A stretch of DNA of 64,000 nucleotides from Escherichia coli (lineage in GTDB: Bacteria; Pseudomonadota; Gammaproteobacteria; Enterobacterales; Enterobacteriaceae): assembly GCF_045037415.1 (NCBI RefSeq), contig NZ_CP173438.1. One strand, 5' to 3'. Positions within the stretch are counted from its first letter, which is position 1; each line of letters begins with the position of its first letter. Below the pieces are notes generated by a model. The model was not told where the DNA came from and made no database searches. It saw only the letters and a list, made by a program, of their open reading frames with translations. A program made the position numbers and the translations under genes. Shown in pieces: positions 48,594-59,101 of the stretch.

Positions 48594-48600
48594 GTCTGGC

Positions 48601-48819
48601 TCAAAACAGTGAAAATCGTCCGAGTATACCTTGTACAGCGGTCAAGGTTAACCGGCGATTGAGTACCGAAATCAGAAAGAAGTGGCTTTTCATTGCTATG
48701 GCGCAAATCATGGGAAGAAACTGACCGCCTACTGCAATTTTTCTCGCGGAAAAGCTGTATTCACACCCCGCAAGCTGGTAGAATCCTGCGCCATCACTAC
48801 GTAACGAGTGCCGGCACAT
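48601..48819 (-). CDS. yaaY: Small ORF YaaY (72 aa), doubtful protein
   Basis: Matches the annotated K-12 yaaY ORF in the rpsT-ribF spacer; coding status is uncertain. Confidence 0.4.
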   Translation of the reverse strand: MCRHSLRSDGAGFYQLAGCEYSFSARKIAVGGQFLPMICAIAMKSHFFLISVLNRRLTLTAVQGILGRFSLF

Positions 48820-48900
48820 TAACGGCGCTTATTTGCACAAATCCATTGACAAAAGAAGGCTAAAAGGGCATATTCCTCGGCCTTTGAATTGTCCATATAG

Positions 48901-49185
<285 letters not shown>

Positions 49186-49208
49186 TTGCCTGTTGTTGTC
49201 AGCTTTGT

Positions 49209-49237
49209 AAAAAAACCCGCTCTGGCGGGTTTTTTTA
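49209..49237 (+). terminator. Intrinsic terminator of rpsT (A-run, GC hairpin, T-run; possibly bidirectional)
   Basis: aaaaaaacccgc-tctg-gcgggttttttt about 25 nt after the rpsT stop. Confidence 0.75.
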
Positions 49238-49573
49238 TGCCTGCGGAAGTTACCGTTAATCGATTATATATTTTCTCCATGAATACATCATAAATATAAT
49301 TGATGCTTTTTCATTGTGAAAGATAAAATATTTCATTTGGCTGTAAAACGTGAACTGTATAACAAATAGCAGGAAAACTGAATAAAAAACTAATTAACGC
49401 AACCTTAAAACGAAAAATTATAATTGTCGCTCTTCCCCACTTTAATTACTCTCATTGCCACAACGTTGCTTTACATCATTAATAAATACGCATCAAGGAT
49501 AGTTAGCATGTATTTGCTTAGAAAGTAAAAGTCGTTTTTCTGAGCCAGGCATTCTTGTTCTGGAGAGAATATA

Positions 49574-50947
49574 ATGAGTTCCGTACTTGAAACTGATAAA
49601 TCATCCGCATCCGATTCACTGCCTTTAATACAACGGATCAGCTATGGTTCGCTGGATGTTGCAGGTAATCTGCTCTACTGTTTTGGCTCCACCTACATTC
49701 TCTATTTCTACACTGACGTGGCGGGCATAAGCCTTGCCGTAGCTGGCATCATCCTGCTACTGGCGCGTATTGTAGACGGTATCGATGCCCCGGTATGGGG
49801 GATTATTATTGATAAAACGCATTCCCGCTACGGTAAATGTCGGCCGTGGTTTTTATGGTTGCCATTACCTTTTGCTGTATTTAGCGCACTCTCATTCTGG
49901 TCGCCAGATATCAGTATGACAGGTAAAACCATATATTCAGCAATATCGTACATGTTAGCCAGCATTCTTTTTACCGGTTTAAACACGCCGCTAAGCGCAA
50001 TATTACCTTTGATGACGTTATCACCAAAAGAACGGTTGGTATTAAACTCTTACCGGATGACCGGCGGGCAAATTGGCGTGTTATTAATGAATGCGACGGC
50101 GCTACCGTTAGTGGCTTTTCTTGGAAACGGTAATGATAAGGCAGGATTTATTTATACTGCTATCGTCTTTTCCGTAATCTCCTGTGCGCTAACGCTATTT
50201 GCCTTCAAAAATATTCGAGAACTGGATACCGACAAAATACAGCAGGAACCACGTCTGCCGATGAAAAAGAGCTTTTCGGCAATGAAAGGCAACTGGCCGT
50301 GGATCCTGATGGTGCTGGCAAATCTCATCTTCTGGATTGCCTTACAGCAGCGCAACACAACCATTGTTTACTATTTAACCTACAACCTGGATCGCAAAGA
50401 TTTAGTTCCCTTGATCAACAGCCTCGCCACCATTCAGATTTTGTTTATCATCGCAATTCCGTTTTTCAGCCGTTACCTCTCCAAAACCTGGATTTGGATC
50501 ACCGGCCTGCTGGTCGCCATGTTCGGCGGAGGACTGATGTGGCTGGCTGGAGACAATATTCCTTTGATGATTGCCGCCTGGATGCTGGCGAATATTGGCA
50601 GTGGCATTGCCTGCTCTATGCCCTTCGCCATGCTTGGTTTCGCGGTTGATTTTGGTCGCTGGAAAACAGGGATTAAAGCTACCGGCATTCTAATCGCCTT
50701 CGGCAGTACCTTCTGCATCAAGATGGGCAGTGGTATCGGCACCGCCTTCGCCGCCTGGATTATGAACAGCTTTGGCTATATTCCCAACCAGCCACAAACT
50801 GCCGCCGGTCTGGACGGTATTAGCTGGGCGTTTATCTGGGTGCCAGCCGTGCTCTTTGCACTCGCCGCCATTCCACTGCTCTTCTTTCGTAAATATGAAG
50901 CGATGGAAGAGTGCATCCAACACGATTTGCAAGTTCATAACCCTTAA
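49574..50947 (+). CDS. Glycoside-pentoside-hexuronide (GPH/MFS_2) family cation symporter, accessory
   Basis: 457-aa ORF with about 12 TM segments and GPH-like N-terminus (similar to YicJ/YagG/melibiose-type carriers); not at this position in K-12. Confidence 0.8.
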   Translation: MSSVLETDKSSASDSLPLIQRISYGSLDVAGNLLYCFGSTYILYFYTDVAGISLAVAGIILLLARIVDGIDAPVWGIIIDKTHSRYGKCRPWFLWLPLPFAVFSALSFWSPDISMTGKTIYSAISYMLASILFTGLNTPLSAILPLMTLSPKERLVLNSYRMTGGQIGVLLMNATALPLVAFLGNGNDKAGFIYTAIVFSVISCALTLFAFKNIRELDTDKIQQEPRLPMKKSFSAMKGNWPWILMVLANLIFWIALQQRNTTIVYYLTYNLDRKDLVPLINSLATIQILFIIAIPFFSRYLSKTWIWITGLLVAMFGGGLMWLAGDNIPLMIAAWMLANIGSGIACSMPFAMLGFAVDFGRWKTGIKATGILIAFGSTFCIKMGSGIGTAFAAWIMNSFGYIPNQPQTAAGLDGISWAFIWVPAVLFALAAIPLLFFRKYEAMEECIQHDLQVHNP

Positions 50948-50974
50948 ACATGTCACAAGCTCCTGGAGGAAATT

Positions 50975-53014
50975 ATGTCGTTTATTAAGCAAGATCCCCA
51001 TCGTCTGGTCTGGCAACAAGACGATCGTTATCTCTGGATTGAAGCATGGGGTGAGAACAGTTTACGTGTGCGTAGCGGTCGCCATCTGCCGATGATGCGC
51101 AATGAAAACTGGGCATTAACAGAAGAAAAAGGTGATGCTGTCGCCTATATCACATATGAAGAAAAGCAGGCAACACTACAAAACGGCAAAATCACCGCCA
51201 TTGTTAATCTGCAGGGTCAGATCTCTTTCTGGCGTAATGCAGAAAAATGCCTGCTGCAGGAGTTCTGGCGTCAGCGCGGCGAAATTGGCGAAGATGAGTC
51301 GGCCCACGGTCAGTATGTCAGCGCCCTGAATTTACAGGCCCGCGAGTTCAAACCGATTCCCGGCGGGAAATACACAATCAAGGCGCGGTTCGAAGCCAAC
51401 GATGGCGAAAAGTTGTTTGGCATGGGGCAGTACCAGCAGCCAAATCTGGATTTAAAAGGCTGTATGCTAGAGCTGGCGCAGCGTAATTCTCAGGCATCGG
51501 TTCCCTTCCTGCTTTCTAATCGCGGCTATGGTTTTCTGTGGAATAACCCAGCGGTGGGTCGCGTCACTTTCGCGCAAAATGGCACGGAATGGGTGGCAGA
51601 AGTTAGCGAACAGTTGGACTACTGGGTTACCGCAGGGGATACTCCCGCAGAAATCAGCGCCGCCTATGCACGTGTTACCGGTACGCCGCCAATGATGCCC
51701 GATTACGCCATGGGATTCTGGCAGTGCAAGTTGCGCTACCGTAATCAGCAAGAGTTACTAGAAGTTGCACGTGGCTACAAGCAGCGTAATTTGCCTATTT
51801 CGGTGATTGTCATCGATTTCTTCCATTGGCCGAATCAGGGTGACTGGATGTTCGATCTGCGCGACTGGCCCGATCCCGATGCCATGATTGCCGAACTAAA
51901 AGAGATGGGCATTGAACTGATGGTCTCCTTCTGGCCCACGGTTGATAACCGTACCGAGAGTTATCGGGAGATGAAAGAAAACGGCTGGCTGGTCCACACC
52001 GAGCGTGGTTTGCCTATCAATATGGATTTCCTTGGCAACACCACGTTCTTTGATGCTACCCATCCTGGCGCACGGGAATATGTCTGGAACAAAGCCAAAC
52101 GCAATTATTACGATAAAGGCGTGAAACTGTTCTGGCTGGATGAAGCCGAGCCAGAGTTCGGTGTTTACGATTATGACAACTATCGTTACTACGCAGGGCC
52201 TGTGCTGGAAGTCGGTAATATCTATCCGCGTATGTACGCCAAAACGTTCTTCGATGGTATGACCGCGGCTGGTGAAAAGCAGGTGATTAACCTGCTGCGC
52301 TGTGCCTGGGCTGGCAGTCAGAAATATGGCGCTCTGGTGTGGTCAGGCGATATTCACTCCTCTTTCCGTTCTTTGCGTAATCAGTTTGCCGCTGGCTTGA
52401 ACATGGGAATTGCCGGGATCCCGTGGTGGACAACCGATATTGGTGGTTTCCACGGCGGTAATATTCACGATCCGAAATTCCATGAACTGTTAATTCGCTG
52501 GTTCCAGTGGGGGGTATTCAGCCCAGTAATGCGTTTACATGGCAACCGCGACCCGCAGGTTTTGCCTGAACAACCCTATCGTGATGGCATAGCACAATGT
52601 CCGACTGGCGCGCCGAATGAAGTCTGGAGCTATGGTGAAGAAACCGGTGAAATTCTCACTTCCTGCCTGCAGTTGCGTGAAAAACTGAAATCTTATATCA
52701 GTAAAATTATGGCTGAGACGCACGAGAAGAACAGCCCGATAATGCGCACGATGTTCTTTGAATTTCCTGACCAGGCAGAAAGCTGGAATATTTATGATCA
52801 GTACTGCTTTGGCCCAGACCTTCTCGTTGCCCCTGTAATGCACGAAGGTACACGTTCACGTGATGTCTGGTTGCCTGCTGGAGAGACATGGATCGATTTT
52901 TATACCCATGAACACTACGCGGGTGGGCAAACGCTTCATCATTGCGCACCGCTGCACCAGATACCGGTATTCATTCGCGAGAAAGGGAAATATCGCCAGA
53001 TATTTCCCGTTTAA
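50975..53014 (+). CDS. Glycoside hydrolase family 31 (alpha-glycosidase), accessory
   Basis: 679-aa ORF with GH31-like catalytic motifs (LFWLDEAEPE nucleophile-region-like; WSGDIHS acid/base-like); 27 nt downstream of the transporter gene. Confidence 0.8.
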   Translation: MSFIKQDPHRLVWQQDDRYLWIEAWGENSLRVRSGRHLPMMRNENWALTEEKGDAVAYITYEEKQATLQNGKITAIVNLQGQISFWRNAEKCLLQEFWRQRGEIGEDESAHGQYVSALNLQAREFKPIPGGKYTIKARFEANDGEKLFGMGQYQQPNLDLKGCMLELAQRNSQASVPFLLSNRGYGFLWNNPAVGRVTFAQNGTEWVAEVSEQLDYWVTAGDTPAEISAAYARVTGTPPMMPDYAMGFWQCKLRYRNQQELLEVARGYKQRNLPISVIVIDFFHWPNQGDWMFDLRDWPDPDAMIAELKEMGIELMVSFWPTVDNRTESYREMKENGWLVHTERGLPINMDFLGNTTFFDATHPGAREYVWNKAKRNYYDKGVKLFWLDEAEPEFGVYDYDNYRYYAGPVLEVGNIYPRMYAKTFFDGMTAAGEKQVINLLRCAWAGSQKYGALVWSGDIHSSFRSLRNQFAAGLNMGIAGIPWWTTDIGGFHGGNIHDPKFHELLIRWFQWGVFSPVMRLHGNRDPQVLPEQPYRDGIAQCPTGAPNEVWSYGEETGEILTSCLQLREKLKSYISKIMAETHEKNSPIMRTMFFEFPDQAESWNIYDQYCFGPDLLVAPVMHEGTRSRDVWLPAGETWIDFYTHEHYAGGQTLHHCAPLHQIPVFIREKGKYRQIFPV

Positions 53015-53071
53015 AGGACATCGTTTGTTCATTAGCACGCCCCGTATGTAGCGGGGCGTGAGTTTTAATAG

Positions 53072-53977
53072 CTATCGTGAGGCGGGAGAAAACAACGAAG
53101 AATAATCCGTATTGCAGATTCGCTGTACCGCCGGGTGCTGAATCATCCGCTCAGCAAAAATAGCATGGTACTCTTCCATCACATTCTCGACGCGACCAAT
53201 TTCTACGACAGTTTTATCGGCATAAAAGTCATATGCATAAAGCGTTGGAGCAACGAAGATTGCATTGTGCATCGCACCAAAAGCTTTCATCAACGCGGCA
53301 TCATCAAACTCGCCAAGGATTTCTACGTTTAATCCCTGGGAGTTAAACCAGTTAAGCAATTTGCGCCCTAACATTGAACGTCGCCCAGGAATCAAAAGCC
53401 GCCGTTCTTCCAGACAAGCCGGGAACGGTTTTTCCGGTGGTGGATTTGTACACCAGAAACTCACGCCACATTCGCCAATTCTCACGGAGAACAGGCCTTC
53501 CTGCTGCGTAGAATCTATCGGACAGTCGGAAATGATCATATCCAGTTTATGCTGACTTAATTGCTCCAGCAGCATTTCGTGGGTGGATTCGAAGCAGCGA
53601 AGATGAATCGGCTCGCCTTCTACCACTGCGGCGTTAAGTACGCTACTGACCAGACGTTTGGAAAGTGCATCTGCCACACCAACATCAAACAATAAGTTGG
53701 ACTCTTTGCGATAGTTGACGATATCCAGCATTTCCTGGCTTAAGGTGAACATTTTATCGGCATAGCGATAGACCAGTTCCCCCAGTTCGCTGGGTTCCAG
53801 ACCACGTCCTTTACGCTTAAATAGTTTCCCTTGCAGGCGCTCTTCCAGCGCCCGGATCTGCCCGGTAATGGTTTGTGGTGTTAAATAAAGCGCCTCCGCT
53901 GCGCCAACCACAGAACCTTCTTTGTAGACATGCCAGAAGTAATACAAGTGGTTGTAATTGATATGAGACATGCTCAT
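53072..53977 (-). CDS. nhaR: LysR-family activator of nhaA
   Basis: Internal Met [30 protein letters not shown]... gives the 301-aa NhaR. Confidence 0.95.
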
Positions 53978-54036
53978 TTCTCTCCCTGATAACAATGAAA
54001 AGGGAGCCGTTTATGGCTCCCCAGTACATCGTCCTG

Positions 54037-55203
54037 TCAAACTGATGGACGTAAACGAACGCGTAACCAGCTATATCCAATTACCGCCGAAGAAATTGAA
54101 CCGACAAGGATACCTAATTTTGCCCAGTTAATCAGTTCTGGATCTACGCTACCAAATGCCAGGCTGGCAATAAAGATAGACATAGTAAAACCGATACCGC
54201 ACAGGATACCAACCGCCATAATTTGCTGGTAAGTCGTTCCCTCTGGCAGATGTGCCAGTTTCAAACGCAGCGCCAACCAGCAGAACAGACTAATACCCAG
54301 TGGCTTGCCAATCAGCAAACCAGCGATGATCCCTAATGGCAGAATGGAGGTCAAACCTTCCAGCGTGACACCTTGCAGTGAAACGCCAGCATTAGCAAAT
54401 GCAAACAGCGGCAAAATCAGATACGCCACCCATGGATGCAAAACATGCTCCAGACGTTTAGCCGGAGAGCGCCCATGCTTCTCTTTTAACGGAATAAAGA
54501 AGCCGACAATGACGCCAGCCAGCGTTGCATGGACACCTGATTTCAACACCGCTGTCCACAGCACCACGCCAACCAGAATATAAACGCCCGTGCGGCGTAC
54601 ACCACACAGATTCAATACCGCGAGTACCGCAATTGCTACAGCCGCGACGCCAAGAGAGGCCATCGATAAGTCATTAGTGTAGAACAATGCGATGATAATG
54701 ATGGCCCCAAGATCGTCGATAATAGCCAGAGCCATCAAAAAGATCTTCAGCGCTAACGGAACACGACTTCCCAACAGCGCCAACACACCAAGTGCAAAGG
54801 CAATGTCAGTCGCCGCCGGGATTGCCCAGCCTTCGCGAGTGATAGGATCGGCATAGTTAAAAGCCAGATAGAGCAATGCCGGGACAATCATCCCGCCGAT
54901 TGCGGCAATAACAGGAAATGCCGCCTGGCGCAGACTGGCCAGCGAACCTTGCATCAGCTCGCGTTTAACTTCCAGACCAACCAACAGGAAAAATACCGCC
55001 ATCAGAGCGTCATTGATCCATAGCAGCATGTTCTTGTTGATCTCAAGTGTCCCAACCCGGAGCTGAACCGGCGTCTCAAGAAAGTCGTGATACCATCCAC
55101 TGGTTGCACCGCTGTTGGCCATAATCATCGCTAATACAGCGGCAATAATGAGAATAATGCCTCCCGAGGCATCACTGCTAAAGAATCGATGCAGATGTTT
55201 CAC
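54037..55203 (-). CDS. nhaA: Na+/H+ antiporter NhaA
   Basis: 388-aa [34 protein letters not shown]...; matches NhaA. Confidence 0.97.
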
Positions 55204-55437: not shown

Positions 55438-56703
55438 TTAAATTGTTCCATGCTCTAGTTTTTTATTCCACAGATGTTTGAGGATATCTAATGTAGAAAC
55501 GACATTCGCAGGAGACATTCGGTTCAATGATATAAGGAAAGGATGGTTCTCCACAAAGTGGATAAAACGCGTCGCACTGTTCAATGTTGCATGCCGCATC
55601 TCGCGGACTTTCTTACTGCCAGTGAGATTGCATACAGCCATTGAATAATTGCGGTTAGAAAATGCACGCCAGACATTATTTCGTACCCCACCACTAAGGA
55701 ATAATCGCGGCGGAAAATCAATGGTGGCGGGTGCCACACCGCGCTCTTTGACAAAGGAAATATGGCAGCGACCTTGATGAATATGCTGCAAATTAGCCAT
55801 CAGGCAGCCGCCCAATATAAAGCATTCGTGATCAAGGTAATGCTGAACGTTGTTGGAATGCTCATCGGTCAGTATTCTGACCAGTTCAAAATGACGATAT
55901 GCCGGAAGAACCGGTTTTACCAACATTCCCGGATCGTTTTGATGTAAAACTGCCGGGCCGTAATCAATATCAAACAAGGTATCCCGCCGCATAGTAAGTA
56001 ACTCTTTGCGCTGGACATGATGTGCCAGCGTCCCTGGAGACATACGCTCTTCATAGTTCGATGTGTATTGATAATGTTGCTCTACGGCAGATGGGGAGTA
56101 ATTGGTTGAGATGGCAACCACCCTGCCGCTTTGTTCTTCTGCGGTAACAAGAGCATAAAGAGAGTTATTGCTACCATTATACTTGACGCGAAAAGCGCGG
56201 GTACTCAGGGTAATATCAGAAGCTGGGAAACACTGTCGACTTTCTTTATAGTTTGCTTCACGCGCTAATTTTAACAGTTCACGGCTAAGTCCAGTGCTGT
56301 TAAGAAGTAATGACTTTCTGATATCCGCAAGTGCCTCCCCTTGCTCAATCATCAATGCTAACTGGGCTCCTCGTGGTGTGGTAATTACATGTTCCAGAGT
56401 GATAAATGTTTTCTCACAATGATGGCAATACATTCTTCTCTGGCCTTGTGCAGAATATCCATATTTTTTGAGGGACGTGCCTCCGCAAGTTGAACATTGG
56501 CAAATCAAACCTCTCCAGGAGTGATTCACAATATTACGATAAATATTAAGCGACTGTTCAGATATCACTGGAAACAAGTAACCACATTCACGGCATAAAA
56601 TATTTTTACCCTGTGCGACATAATCCTGGCTATTCAGCAACCCCAGGTTTTTACATCCTGGTGTTTTGCAACAATCAACATTTACGTTGGTAAACATATC
56701 CAC
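55438..56703 (-). CDS. Cys-rich 421-aa protein with N-terminal zinc-ribbon motifs (IS1 InsA-like signature), function unknown, accessory
   Basis: N-terminal 100 aa carry four Cys pairs; CQCSTCGG...YGYSAQGQRRMYCHHCEKTF closely resembles the InsA zinc finger CPSCSA...[20 protein letters not shown]. No CxxxCxxC radical-SAM motif. AT-rich gene. Confidence 0.5.
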   Translation of the reverse strand: MDMFTNVNVDCCKTPGCKNLGLLNSQDYVAQGKNILCRECGYLFPVISEQSLNIYRNIVNHSWRGLICQCSTCGGTSLKKYGYSAQGQRRMYCHHCEKTFITLEHVITTPRGAQLALMIEQGEALADIRKSLLLNSTGLSRELLKLAREANYKESRQCFPASDITLSTRAFRVKYNGSNNSLYALVTAEEQSGRVVAISTNYSPSAVEQHYQYTSNYEERMSPGTLAHHVQRKELLTMRRDTLFDIDYGPAVLHQNDPGMLVKPVLPAYRHFELVRILTDEHSNNVQHYLDHECFILGGCLMANLQHIHQGRCHISFVKERGVAPATIDFPPRLFLSGGVRNNVWRAFSNRNYSMAVCNLTGSKKVREMRHATLNSATRFIHFVENHPFLISLNRMSPANVVSTLDILKHLWNKKLEHGTI

Positions 56704-56741
56704 TCCCTGCGAATAGCCGTATCTTGATATTGTTCAACGCG

Positions 56742-56780
56742 AAAAGAACCTGATTCAATGCGTAGCACTGAATCAGGCGG
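56742..56780 (-). terminator. Putative intrinsic terminator after the sulfatase gene
   Basis: Perfect 9-bp inverted repeat cctgattca-N11-tgaatcagg followed on the minus strand by ttcttttcgc. Confidence 0.45.
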
Positions 56781-56825
56781 GCATAGCCCTAAATGGCATA
56801 CATTACATTTATTATGATTATCAGG

Positions 56826-58319
56826 TTAGCCCCAGGTCACCGCTTCTGGTTTATCACCTCTGGCTTTCATTAGAGAATCATTATCAATATCAGTTTTATA
56901 TTTTAAAAACTTACCATACATCTGTTTTTCAATATCTGGTTTTTTACCGATCAGATTAAGTGTTTCATAACGATCAGATTTCAGATTGTAGAGATATTTC
57001 GGTTTATTATTGCGATCGATAATCATCTTCCAGTCACCATCACGGATCGCCCATTCATCGGTTGGATCATCCTGGAATGGCATATCAATCCCGAAAATTA
57101 ATGGCTTTTCGCGTTTCAATGCTTTTTGCTCAAGAACAGGAACCAGCGATTCACCATCGAAAGTACGGTCTGTAGGTAATTTGAAGTTCATCATTTTCGC
57201 TAAAGTAGGCATCCAGTCCAGACCATAAACGGGTGTATCTGAAACCATTCCCTGTGGTAGATGTTTACCATATTTAATAATGGCTGGAACACGAATTCCG
57301 CCTTCCCAAAGGTTATCCTTGCGACCGCGTAATCCATCCGTTTCCCCTGCCAAATTCAGCTCATACACTTTGCGCGCTTCACGCGTTACCGGACCGTTAT
57401 CACTGGTAAAAATAACGATTGTGTTATCTTCTTCACCCACAGCTTTGATTTTATCCAGCACTTTTCCAACCTGTGCATCCAGATAGCTGATATTGGCATA
57501 ATATTCCCCCACACCACGCCAGGGTTTGTCTGCCCAGTCGCCATAAAATAAATCAGGATGCTGCTTCTGATACGCGCTCATATATTGTGAGTACATATCG
57601 AGGTATTTTTTGGGCGAAGCCAGGGGGCTATGCACTTCGGTAAAAGCAACATAGAGGAAGAAAGGCTTGCTGTCCTTTTTGTTATCCAGCCAGTTGACGA
57701 CTTCCGAACTGACATACTCACCGCTCATTTTATCGGCTCGTGGAGTGGGTTGCCCGTTACGTAGCCAGCCTGTCGGGTAAACCATGCCATAACGCGGGCG
57801 TTCTTTAGCGTTATCCAGCGTGGCGTCGGTAACAAAGCCCGCCGTATTAACCAGTGAGTAATCAAAGCCCATATCTTGTGCTTGTGGCTGATCGGTGCGA
57901 TCGCTGCCTGCATTCAGATGCAGCTTACCCATCATTGCCGTGTCGTACCCTTGCGCTTTGAGTAGATTAGCAATCGTGAGTTCGTTACGCCCTAAGGCAA
58001 CATCTTTGCCTGAAGGAATCCATGAGCGAATTCCAGTACGAAATGGCATCCGGCCGGTTAATAGCCCTGCGCGTGAAGGTGAACTTAAAGGAGCGGGGGC
58101 ATAGTAGTCAGTAAATTTGACCCCTTCCTGGGCAAGCCTGTCGATATTAGGTGTTTTAACGATCTGATGACCATATGTTGCTAAATCGCCATAACCTAAA
58201 TCATCCGCCATAATAATGACTAAATTAGGTTGTTTAGCCTCTGCGGCTAAGGCAGGACTAAAAGCATTCCCTGTGCAAACTGCAAGGCCGATCAAACTGG
58301 CCATTAACGTTTTCTGCAT
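56826..58319 (-). CDS. Periplasmic arylsulfatase-family hydrolase, Ser-type (signature SSPSRAGLLTG), accessory
   Basis: 497-aa ORF with Sec signal peptide and the sulfatase active-site signature [C/S]-x-P-x-R-x4-TG with Ser at the formylglycine position. Confidence 0.85.
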   Translation of the reverse strand: MQKTLMASLIGLAVCTGNAFSPALAAEAKQPNLVIIMADDLGYGDLATYGHQIVKTPNIDRLAQEGVKFTDYYAPAPLSSPSRAGLLTGRMPFRTGIRSWIPSGKDVALGRNELTIANLLKAQGYDTAMMGKLHLNAGSDRTDQPQAQDMGFDYSLVNTAGFVTDATLDNAKERPRYGMVYPTGWLRNGQPTPRADKMSGEYVSSEVVNWLDNKKDSKPFFLYVAFTEVHSPLASPKKYLDMYSQYMSAYQKQHPDLFYGDWADKPWRGVGEYYANISYLDAQVGKVLDKIKAVGEEDNTIVIFTSDNGPVTREARKVYELNLAGETDGLRGRKDNLWEGGIRVPAIIKYGKHLPQGMVSDTPVYGLDWMPTLAKMMNFKLPTDRTFDGESLVPVLEQKALKREKPLIFGIDMPFQDDPTDEWAIRDGDWKMIIDRNNKPKYLYNLKSDRYETLNLIGKKPDIEKQMYGKFLKYKTDIDNDSLMKARGDKPEAVTWG

Positions 58320-58339
58320 AATTATTCCCTGATAAAAAA

Positions 58340-59101
58340 TTAGAAATCATAACCAAGCATATAAATCATTTGATCGCCAAAGCCATCGTAGCCCAGCTTA
58401 TTATCGAAATAACGCCACGTCACACTGGCTTTCCAGCGAGGATAGAACTTCCAGGCAATAGTTAAACCGCCATTTAACCCGTTCCGGCCAAATTGCTGCT
58501 CCGTGTAAGCATCGTTCCTGTCCAGTTCTATTTCATTCCAGTTAGATAAAACAAATTTTTCGTCAAATAACGTAAATGGTAATACTGCTGTCCAGCCAAC
58601 AACATAACCATTCCAACCATTCGTTTGACCATATTTAGCTGATACGTAGTCACCAGATTGATTATGTAATCCAATATACGGTTTAAAAAAGCCCCACTCG
58701 CCGTTCCAGCCGAGGTAACCGAATCCATAAAACATGTCCAGATCGTCACCCCATGAGTTATCCCATTGGCCATAAATTTTGCCAAAGAATGTCATATCAG
58801 AGTCAAAGAGTCTGACATGCGTCATTACTGAAACCGTATGATTTCGCCCTGCTACAGCATGATTGAGTACATTACTTTCATAAAATGAGTAAAATTCTGC
58901 TTCTTTAAAATTTACCCCAAAATCCGCAGTCACTTTCCATACTTCACCACGGTGAGTGTTTACAAATCCACTATTCCAGTCTGCATAACCCGCATTTATT
59001 GAACCAAAGGTTCCTTTATATTCTAATGAAGAATATGCAGGAAAATGATAGATAGCTGTTATCAGGGTACACGCAATAAGAAGTCGTCTTTTGGCAGACA
59101 T
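58340..59101 (-). CDS. Outer-membrane beta-barrel channel, Tsx-like, accessory
   Basis: 253-aa ORF rich in W/Y/G/D/N with alternating beta-strand pattern and C-terminal ...MLGYDF (terminal aromatic, as in Tsx ...VVGYNF); stop lies 20 bp before the sulfatase start. Confidence 0.6.
   Translation of the reverse strand: MSAKRRLLIACTLITAIYHFPAYSSLEYKGTFGSINAGYADWNSGFVNTHRGEVWKVTADFGVNFKEAEFYSFYESNVLNHAVAGRNHTVSVMTHVRLFDSDMTFFGKIYGQWDNSWGDDLDMFYGFGYLGWNGEWGFFKPYIGLHNQSGDYVSAKYGQTNGWNGYVVGWTAVLPFTLFDEKFVLSNWNEIELDRNDAYTEQQFGRNGLNGGLTIAWKFYPRWKASVTWRYFDNKLGYDGFGDQMIYMLGYDF

Follow-up and report, generated by a model that had tools for sequence, protein, structure and literature searches.

A transporter gene and a GH31 gene between rpsT and nhaR

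We analyzed a 64,000-nucleotide stretch of Escherichia coli DNA (contig NZ_CP173438.1 of assembly GCF_045037415.1, hereafter the window) and focused on a two-gene module lying between rpsT and nhaR. The surrounding genes keep the E. coli arrangement, with ileS, ribF and rpsT on one side of the insert and nhaR and nhaA on the other. Within the interval, the list of open reading frames (ORFs) places a 457-residue ORF followed, on the same strand, by a 679-residue ORF. The first encodes a glycoside:cation symporter of the GPH family and the second a member of glycoside hydrolase family 31 (GH31); both genes are already present in the RefSeq annotation, in generic terms. As argued below, the pair is probably a two-gene operon for the catabolism of an alpha-xyloside, old at this site and repeatedly exchanged within E. 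coli. A preliminary description of this DNA had placed GPH and GH31 genes 27 nucleotides apart between rpsT and nhaR, behind some 390 bp of very AT-rich sequence, with no regulator beside them and with an E. coli-like base composition. Each of these points held up: the ORF list gives the same coordinates, the upstream region measures 388 bp at 33% GC, and the Pfam and TIGR00792 matches to the two families lie far beyond chance.

The spacer between the genes (50948–50974) carries a GGAGG ribosome-binding site 7 nucleotides ahead of the GH31 start codon (ATG), and the terminator scan scored no terminator between the two genes. Beyond the GH31 stop codon, a GC-rich hairpin that also faces the convergent nhaR gene is a candidate, and a likely one, for a bidirectional terminator; in the junction alignment it is kept in a second E. 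coli allele of the module and in Escherichia whittamii. Similarity to other E. coli stops just past the rpsT terminator, at about 49238–49245 (match ends and junction alignment), which marks the left edge of a replaceable segment, and at the other end the last ~25 nucleotides of nhaR vary with the cassette that occupies the site (junction alignment). The ORF list contains no regulator gene inside the module, and the neighboring nhaR belongs to nhaA. The two genes have GC contents of 47.5% and 50.5% and a GC content at third codon positions (GC3) of 54–55%, compared with 51.7% GC for the window, a composition that is roughly E. coli-like. Between rpsT and nhaR we found no integrase, transposase or insertion sequence (IS) ORF and no direct repeats at the junctions; the GC3 of the module resembles that of the neighboring core genes, and the module does not qualify as a mobile genomic island.

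Table 1. Features of the rpsT-nhaR interval and its flanks, in window coordinates.
Feature	Position	Strand	Basis
rpsT, ribosomal protein S20, conserved left flank	48922-49185	+	ORF list; rpsT annotation in identical genomes
Operon leader/promoter region, 388 bp, 33% GC	49186-49573	+	Composition; nine-sequence alignment
rpsT intrinsic terminator: A-run, CCCGC/GCGGG stem, T-run	49209-49236	+	Sequence
Putative CRP-like site, cGTGAactgtaTaACA	49349-49364	+	Conserved alignment columns
TATAAT, candidate -10 in the conserved block ATAATTG	49419-49424	+	Conservation
Inverted repeat CTTAGAAA-N12-TTTCTGAG, presumed 5' untranslated region	49517-49544	+	Conservation
GPH-family (MFS_2) glycoside:cation symporter, 457 residues	49574-50947	+	Pfam, TIGR00792
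Predicted GH31 (subfamily 4-like) alpha-xylosidase, 679 residues	50975-53014	+	Pfam; MeXyl31 identity
Recombined patch: last ~550 bp of the GH31 gene and 3' ~600 bp of nhaR	52480-53670	.	Sliding-window identities
GC-rich hairpin, 10-bp stem and T-rich tract, between the convergent GH31 and nhaR stops	53036-53060	+	Terminator scan, junction alignment
nhaR, LysR-type activator of nhaA, right flank	53072-53971	-	ORF list; alignment

In a nine-sequence alignment, the proximal ~230 bp of the leader contains blocks that are conserved from Escherichia to Salmonella and Citrobacter. These include the putative CRP-like site, which reads cGTGA-N6-TaACA in the window and TGTGA-N6-TAGCA in Citrobacter and Salmonella, a block with the pattern AAAAAC-AAT-AACGCAA, and the candidate -10 hexamer. 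The hexamer has a poor -35, and hence is not listed by a simple promoter scan, suggesting that the promoter is activator-dependent. The scan itself returned 8 sites against 7.4 expected in shuffled sequence, no excess, so the promoter proposal rests on cross-genus conservation. About 30 nucleotides upstream of the transporter start, the inverted repeat is kept in Escherichia, Citrobacter and Salmonella and is missing from Superficieibacter and from one further contig in the alignment (L094). Either an operator or an RNA hairpin would fit the repeat, which has no match in Rfam.

A known small RNA or riboswitch in the leader was considered and rejected. An Rfam scan of positions 48600–53400 at E ≤ 1 gave only sub-threshold matches driven by the rpsT terminator (STnc370, STnc130, istR and others), and scans of the Salmonella, Citrobacter, second-allele and E. 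whittamii loci at gathering thresholds placed no family in the leader. The STnc370 (33.5 bits, cut-off 54) and STnc130 matches fall on the minus strand at 49204–49361, over the bidirectional rpsT terminator. They are below threshold in the Salmonella-cluster locus (L087) as well and are probably chance matches driven by the terminator.

The enzyme, the symporter and their relatives

The GH31 protein matches three Pfam domains above their gathering scores: an N-terminal beta-sandwich (PF13802, E = 1.5e-8), a (beta/alpha)8 catalytic barrel (PF01055, E = 1.2e-78) and a C-terminal beta-sandwich (PF21365, E = 1.8e-27). In a PDB search, its best match was MeXyl31 (PDB 5ZN6; 1026 bits, 63.8% identity over 663 residues), a crystallized alpha-xylosidase of soil-metagenomic origin. 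The five best solved relatives, which also include A. niger 6DRU, X. citri 7KMP, B. ovatus 5JOU and C. japonicus 2XVG, are all alpha-xylosidases and score from 1026 down to 290 bits; the first non-xylosidase follows at 212 bits, E. coli YicI at 162 and YihQ at 105. From its 64% identity to an assayed enzyme, we infer that the GH31 protein has alpha-xylosidase activity, in line with the alpha-xyloside substrate class that the preliminary description had put forward. Enzymes of GH31 carry the nucleophile as the Asp of a W-x-D-x-x-E signature and the acid/base as the Asp of W-x-G-D. On this general knowledge, D389 (in FWLDEAEP) and D459 (in VWSGD) are the putative catalytic residues, and both motifs are identical in the MeXyl31 alignment. 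No signal sequence is obvious by eye at the N-terminus (MSFIKQDPHRLVW...), so the enzyme is probably cytoplasmic.

Judged by its best solved relatives (MeXyl31, 6DRU, XylS, BoGH31A and CjXyl31A), the protein groups with members of GH31 subfamily 4 (GH31_4), in which MeXyl31, XylS, BoYicI and CjXyl31A have been named (PMC10792220). Its best NCBIfam match is the alpha-xylosidase model of the YicI equivalog, NF007940, at 242 bits, below the 606-bit cut-off, which makes it a paralogue rather than an orthologue of YicI. The comparison with YicI/YicJ and YihQ/YihOP that the preliminary description had proposed found both to be only distant relatives: with YicI at 162 bits and YihQ at 105, the protein is a third GH31 lineage in E. 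coli and a copy of neither.

Several known systems resemble the module in part. MeXyl31 (PDB 5ZN6 and 5ZN7; Matsuzawa et al., 2016, and Nakamichi et al., 2022, as cited in PMC10792220) is closest in build, with 687 residues against 679, the same three domains and, in both proteins, no PA14 insert; it differs in coming from a soil organism. E. coli YicI/YicJ offers the same pairing of a GPH symporter gene with a gene for a cytoplasmic GH31 alpha-xylosidase, but YicI has 772 residues and is a distant paralogue, and the transporter described here scores below all named equivalog cut-offs. YihQ, YihO and YihP likewise combine a GH31 enzyme of similar length with GPH transporters, but YihQ is remote, the PRK11462 transporter model gives 176 bits against a cut-off of 836, and no sulfoglycolysis genes lie near the module. 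The GH31_4 enzymes of xyloglucan loci (CjXyl31A, BoGH31A and X. citri XylS) share the catalytic and C-terminal domains at 290–313 bits, but are ~950–1020 residues long and sit in large polysaccharide-utilization loci. The PA14 domain of some of these enzymes binds large xyloglucan oligosaccharides (PMC10792220). By comparison, the enzyme studied here is short and the symporter is its sole companion, which points to a small substrate.

The symporter matches PF13347 (MFS_2; E = 1e-77, residues 23–438) and scores 359.9 bits against the TIGR00792 gph model over residues 21–453, above the 231.35-bit cut-off; this full-length match, with the 12-helix layout of MFS_2, places it in the GPH family (TC 2.A.2). 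It falls short of each named equivalog within the family: YagG (246 of 610 bits required), the glucuronide transporter (221 of 528), MelB (214 of 456) and PRK11462 (176 of 836). Its best solved relative is MelB (E = 9e-42), and in the alignment of the MelB cation site (7L16), D55 is kept as Asp, N58 is replaced by Asp and D59 by Ala.

History of the rpsT-nhaR site

Outside E. coli, where we scanned one genome per species, the closest copies have 80–84% protein identity and occur in C. werkmanii, Citrobacter sp. FP75, two C. youngae, Klebsiella spallanzanii and Superficieibacter electus. The order rpsT-GPH-GH31-nhaR-nhaA was found wherever both flanks were covered, which was the case for four Citrobacter genomes; the K. 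spallanzanii locus stops short of rpsT and the Superficieibacter locus stops short of nhaR. E. whittamii and other non-coli Escherichia also carry the pair at the rpsT-nhaR site. A cluster of ~7,400 sequences, 83% identical to the GH31 protein, belongs to Salmonella enterica, whose orthologous pair has the same site and gene order in the one contig read. The two species differ in how common the locus appears, with this very large cluster in Salmonella against ~12% of E. coli genomes carrying the pair, and the proteins are uncharacterized there too. We take the S. enterica LT2 counterparts of the pair to be STM0041 and STM0042, with STM0041 the GH31 gene; the only literature mention of STM0041 that we found lists it among genes truncated in Paratyphi A. 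Because the same pair lies at the same site across Salmonella, Citrobacter, K. spallanzanii, Superficieibacter and E. whittamii, it is an old occupant of that site in the Salmonella/Citrobacter/Escherichia group, which agrees with the earlier suggestion of an ancestral locus rather than a recent import. More distant orthologues (~55–64% identity) occur in Lachnospiraceae, Blautia, Bacillaceae, Sphingomonas and others. In Alphaproteobacteria the GH31 orthologue is paired with a distant GPH gene. In Firmicutes its companions are genes for an ABC sugar transporter and for a sensor kinase with an AraC-type response regulator, in some cases along with another GH31 gene; such a neighborhood is typical of oligosaccharide loci and is uninformative on the substrate.

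We sorted 5,426 complete E. coli genomes, a set that does not include UMN026 (NC_011751.1), by the state of this site. The module is present in 638 of them (~12%), always on the chromosome. The window's version, allele A, is found at ≥99% identity in 565 genomes, including SE15, MNCRE44 and a strain named ST-131. We call it the ST131-type (sequence type 131) allele on the basis of strain names, and because MNCRE44 and SE15 are both ST131. A second version, allele B, occupies the same site in 74 genomes with 87% DNA identity to the window allele, and its proteins are identical to those of SMS-3-5 (phylogroup F). In 557 CFT073-like genomes of phylogroup B2 the site is empty, with rpsT and nhaR 95 bp apart. 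A B2-type rpsT flank, shared by all carriers of allele A, occurs in 1,127 genomes, a number close to the 565 with the module plus the 557 without it. In ~4,300 genomes the site holds an island of espX1 and chaperone-usher fimbrial genes, or its remnants, 1,193 of them at full length and many with part of the interior deleted; O157:H7, IAI39 (F) and 042 (D) are examples. The site states are thus the allele B module (part of F, and E. whittamii), the mosaic allele A (ST131-type B2), the island (phylogroups E, D, A and B1, together with part of F) and the empty site (most B2).

Both ORFs are intact and annotated in all 638 listed module genomes, and in every pair compared, even where dS exceeds 1, both genes show a ratio of nonsynonymous to synonymous divergence (dN/dS) of 0.03–0.05, indicating strong purifying selection. 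The two alleles have had different histories. Allele B is 97% identical to the E. whittamii module, and its dS of 0.10–0.13 is similar to that of the flanking ileS and ribF genes (0.13–0.17), so it looks vertically inherited within Escherichia. Between alleles A and B, the transporter gene is 84% identical with a dS of 1.0–1.1, approaching the distance between E. coli and Salmonella core genes, compared with 0.04–0.30 for the flanking genes of the same two strains. In addition, a patch that covers the last stretch of the GH31 gene together with the 3' part of nhaR (Table 1) is 96–99% identical to phylogroup F (allele B) and K-12-type sequence; left of it the module is ~84% identical to the other allele, and right of it the window is 99–100% identical to CFT073-like B2. 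The window's copy is therefore not simply vertical: it is a mosaic that has diverged deeply, and its breakpoints lie near 52480 and 53670. The empty site carries its own trace of replacement. Its nhaR is 906 bp rather than 900 bp long, and the 3' 600 bp (L003:5382-5980, corresponding to window 53072–53670) matches every other Escherichia allele at only ~81% identity, a distance comparable to that of Citrobacter, so the empty B2 state is a foreign replacement and not a clean deletion, with an essential-looking nhaR that is a chimera containing a segment from a distant enterobacterial donor. All site states diverge right after the rpsT terminator (~49245) and within the last ~25 nucleotides of nhaR in the junction alignment; evidently, recombination between homologous flanks has exchanged the segment between these two boundaries on several occasions.

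This history bears on two other accounts of the locus. The ST131-type module could be a recent horizontal acquisition, a genomic islet rather than an inherited locus: its close B2 relatives such as CFT073 are empty with flanks 99–100% identical, and allele A is mosaic and ~16% divergent in DNA (dS ~1) from the allele typical of Escherichia. We consider this possible but rather unlikely, since the module sits at the ancestral site in the ancestral orientation, shares its hairpin terminator with allele B and E. whittamii, and has neither mobility genes nor repeats; as the empty B2 state arose through replacement by foreign sequence, the module could be the older B2 state, and re-import from a related lineage by flank-mediated homologous recombination would fit an old, exchanged operon as well. 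The second account concerns K-12, which the preliminary description held to carry IS1 at this junction, to lack both genes, and to have lost them by an IS1-associated deletion. The absence is real: in BW25113 the site consists of IS1A, a 138-bp C-terminal remnant of a fimbrial gene and then nhaR, with both module genes missing, and the position of IS1A between nhaAR and rpsT has been confirmed (PMC12428005). A deletion of the module from the K-12 lineage would suit the placement of IS1A exactly between rpsT and nhaR and the ancestry of the module at this site at the genus level and above, but the remnant that IS1A abuts belongs to the espX1-fimbrial island, and in K-12 strains the matches to the O157 island are confined to its two ends, at 99.3% identity. 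In E. coli 042 (L097:5747-7427), IS1A lies within the last fimbrial gene, the same gene whose remnant flanks the K-12 element, and the island is otherwise complete. Neither the K-12 nor the O157 version of the site contains module sequence at E ≤ 1e-5. These observations indicate that what K-12 lost through the IS1-associated deletion was espX1 with the fimbrial genes rather than the module, which had been displaced earlier, and make an IS1-mediated loss of the module very improbable. The preliminary interpretation thus stands in what it says of the protein families, of the substrate class and of the age of the locus, and fails for the way in which K-12 came to lack it.

We made several further observations in this neighborhood. 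The presence of IS1A in the same fimbrial gene of 042 and K-12 suggests either a target shared by descent or an insertion hot spot. The divergence of nhaA (window 53972–55203, taken with the 5' end of nhaR) among phylogroups is unusually high: the window's copy differs from that of K-12 or phylogroup F by a dS of 0.30–0.34, compared with 0.04–0.19 for ribF and ileS; identity falls to 85–90% in 100-bp windows, and the B2 allele is nearer E. whittamii than K-12. On an Escherichia metagenome scaffold with an E. whittamii-type module (L092:2651-3589), ribF is only ~80% identical to all other Escherichia ribF genes while ileS and rpsT are normal, which is another local replacement in the same neighborhood. 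Between nhaA and hok/mok-dnaJ, on the minus strand at 55438–59101, lies a second variable block, with a GC3 of 35–42%, whose genes encode a 421-residue protein, a sulfatase and a channel of the OmpK/Tsx-like type. B2, phylogroup F and E. whittamii carry this block; K-12, O157 and 042 lack it. The 421-residue protein, annotated as 'hypothetical' or as an 'IS1/IS1595 N-terminal zinc-binding domain protein', is 83% identical between the B2 and F versions and has ~65% identical homologues in Citrobacter, K. spallanzanii and a Salmonella-cluster contig, where it lies beside arylsulfotransferase and radical-SAM/SPASM genes.

Proposed function and implications

We propose that cation-coupled uptake of a small alpha-xylosyl glycoside or oligosaccharide is the role of the GPH symporter, and that the cytoplasmic enzyme, a retaining alpha-xylosidase of the GH31_4 type, would free xylose and an aglycone or sugar that pass into central metabolism. 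Transcription would probably start within the conserved stretch of the AT-rich leader, at a CRP-type promoter that depends on an activator, and end at the hairpin shared with nhaR, with any specific regulator encoded elsewhere. Within E. coli, homologous recombination would have swapped the replaceable segment repeatedly and so produced the four site states, K-12 being an IS1-deleted remnant of the espX1-fimbrial one.

Several points weigh against this proposal. MeXyl31 prefers p-nitrophenyl alpha-xyloside and acts poorly on isoprimeverose and xyloglucan oligosaccharides (PMC10792220), and the authors call the natural substrates of MeXyl31-like enzymes unknown (PMC10792220); a link of the module to xyloglucan would be tentative. 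The substrate and coupling ion of the symporter are not readable from its sequence, as it lies below every NCBIfam equivalog cut-off and has Asp and Ala in place of the N58 and D59 of MelB. The promoter, the CRP site and the hairpin of the untranslated region are all proposed from conservation. Searches of the literature by locus tag and for ST131 and the enzyme found no functional study of the E. coli or Salmonella proteins. Among the genomes compared, we identified no donor of allele A, which may be an old balanced B2 allele or a re-import from an unsampled relative.

Two alternatives concern what the proteins do. The enzyme might be an alpha-glucosidase or have another GH31 activity, such as that of a sulfoquinovosidase: GH31 contains many alpha-glucosidases, the protein has partial, sub-threshold NCBIfam matches to the alpha-glucosidase MalA and to PRK10426, and the weak activity of MeXyl31 on natural xylosides leaves room for a different true substrate. 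We judge this improbable, given that the top NCBIfam model and the five best solved relatives (1026–290 bits) are alpha-xylosidases, well ahead of the first non-xylosidase (212) and of the sulfoquinovosidase YihQ (105). It is also conceivable that the genes do nothing in present-day E. coli and are relics in decay, as most E. coli lack the module, no regulator adjoins it, its AT-rich leader may be silenced, and STM0041, taken here as the LT2 counterpart of the GH31 gene, is listed with truncation mutations in Paratyphi A. Against decay stand the intact ORFs in all listed genomes, the low dN/dS even across dS above 1, and the conservation of the promoter-proximal blocks across genera, and we give the idea very little credence.

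The enzyme and transporter families are well known, and the proposed biochemistry is ordinary; it is the chromosomal site that is unusually replaceable. One speculative extension, which we think unlikely, is that the rpsT-nhaR interval is a long-lived three-way polymorphism of module, espX1-fimbrial island and empty site that is kept by selection and not by drift. If so, an alpha-xyloside out of reach of other E. coli would become available through the module to ST131-type strains, to some strains of phylogroup F and to Salmonella, with dietary xyloglucan fragments released by Bacteroides or host alpha-xylosylated glycans as candidate substrates, and such selection would have left its footprints in the deep allele (dS ~1) and in the crossovers that recur at the same two boundaries.

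The analysis corrects the history of a much-used K-12 landmark, placing IS1A in the wreck of an espX1-fimbrial island. It also points to a third, uncharacterized GH31 system in E. coli that sets the pandemic ST131 lineage apart from other B2 strains, and the very large cluster of Salmonella counterparts makes the system a cheap candidate for growth and colonization tests. For the short GH31_4 clade that includes MeXyl31 and A. oryzae AxyC, a genetically tractable host with a dedicated transporter would help answer the question of the natural substrate.

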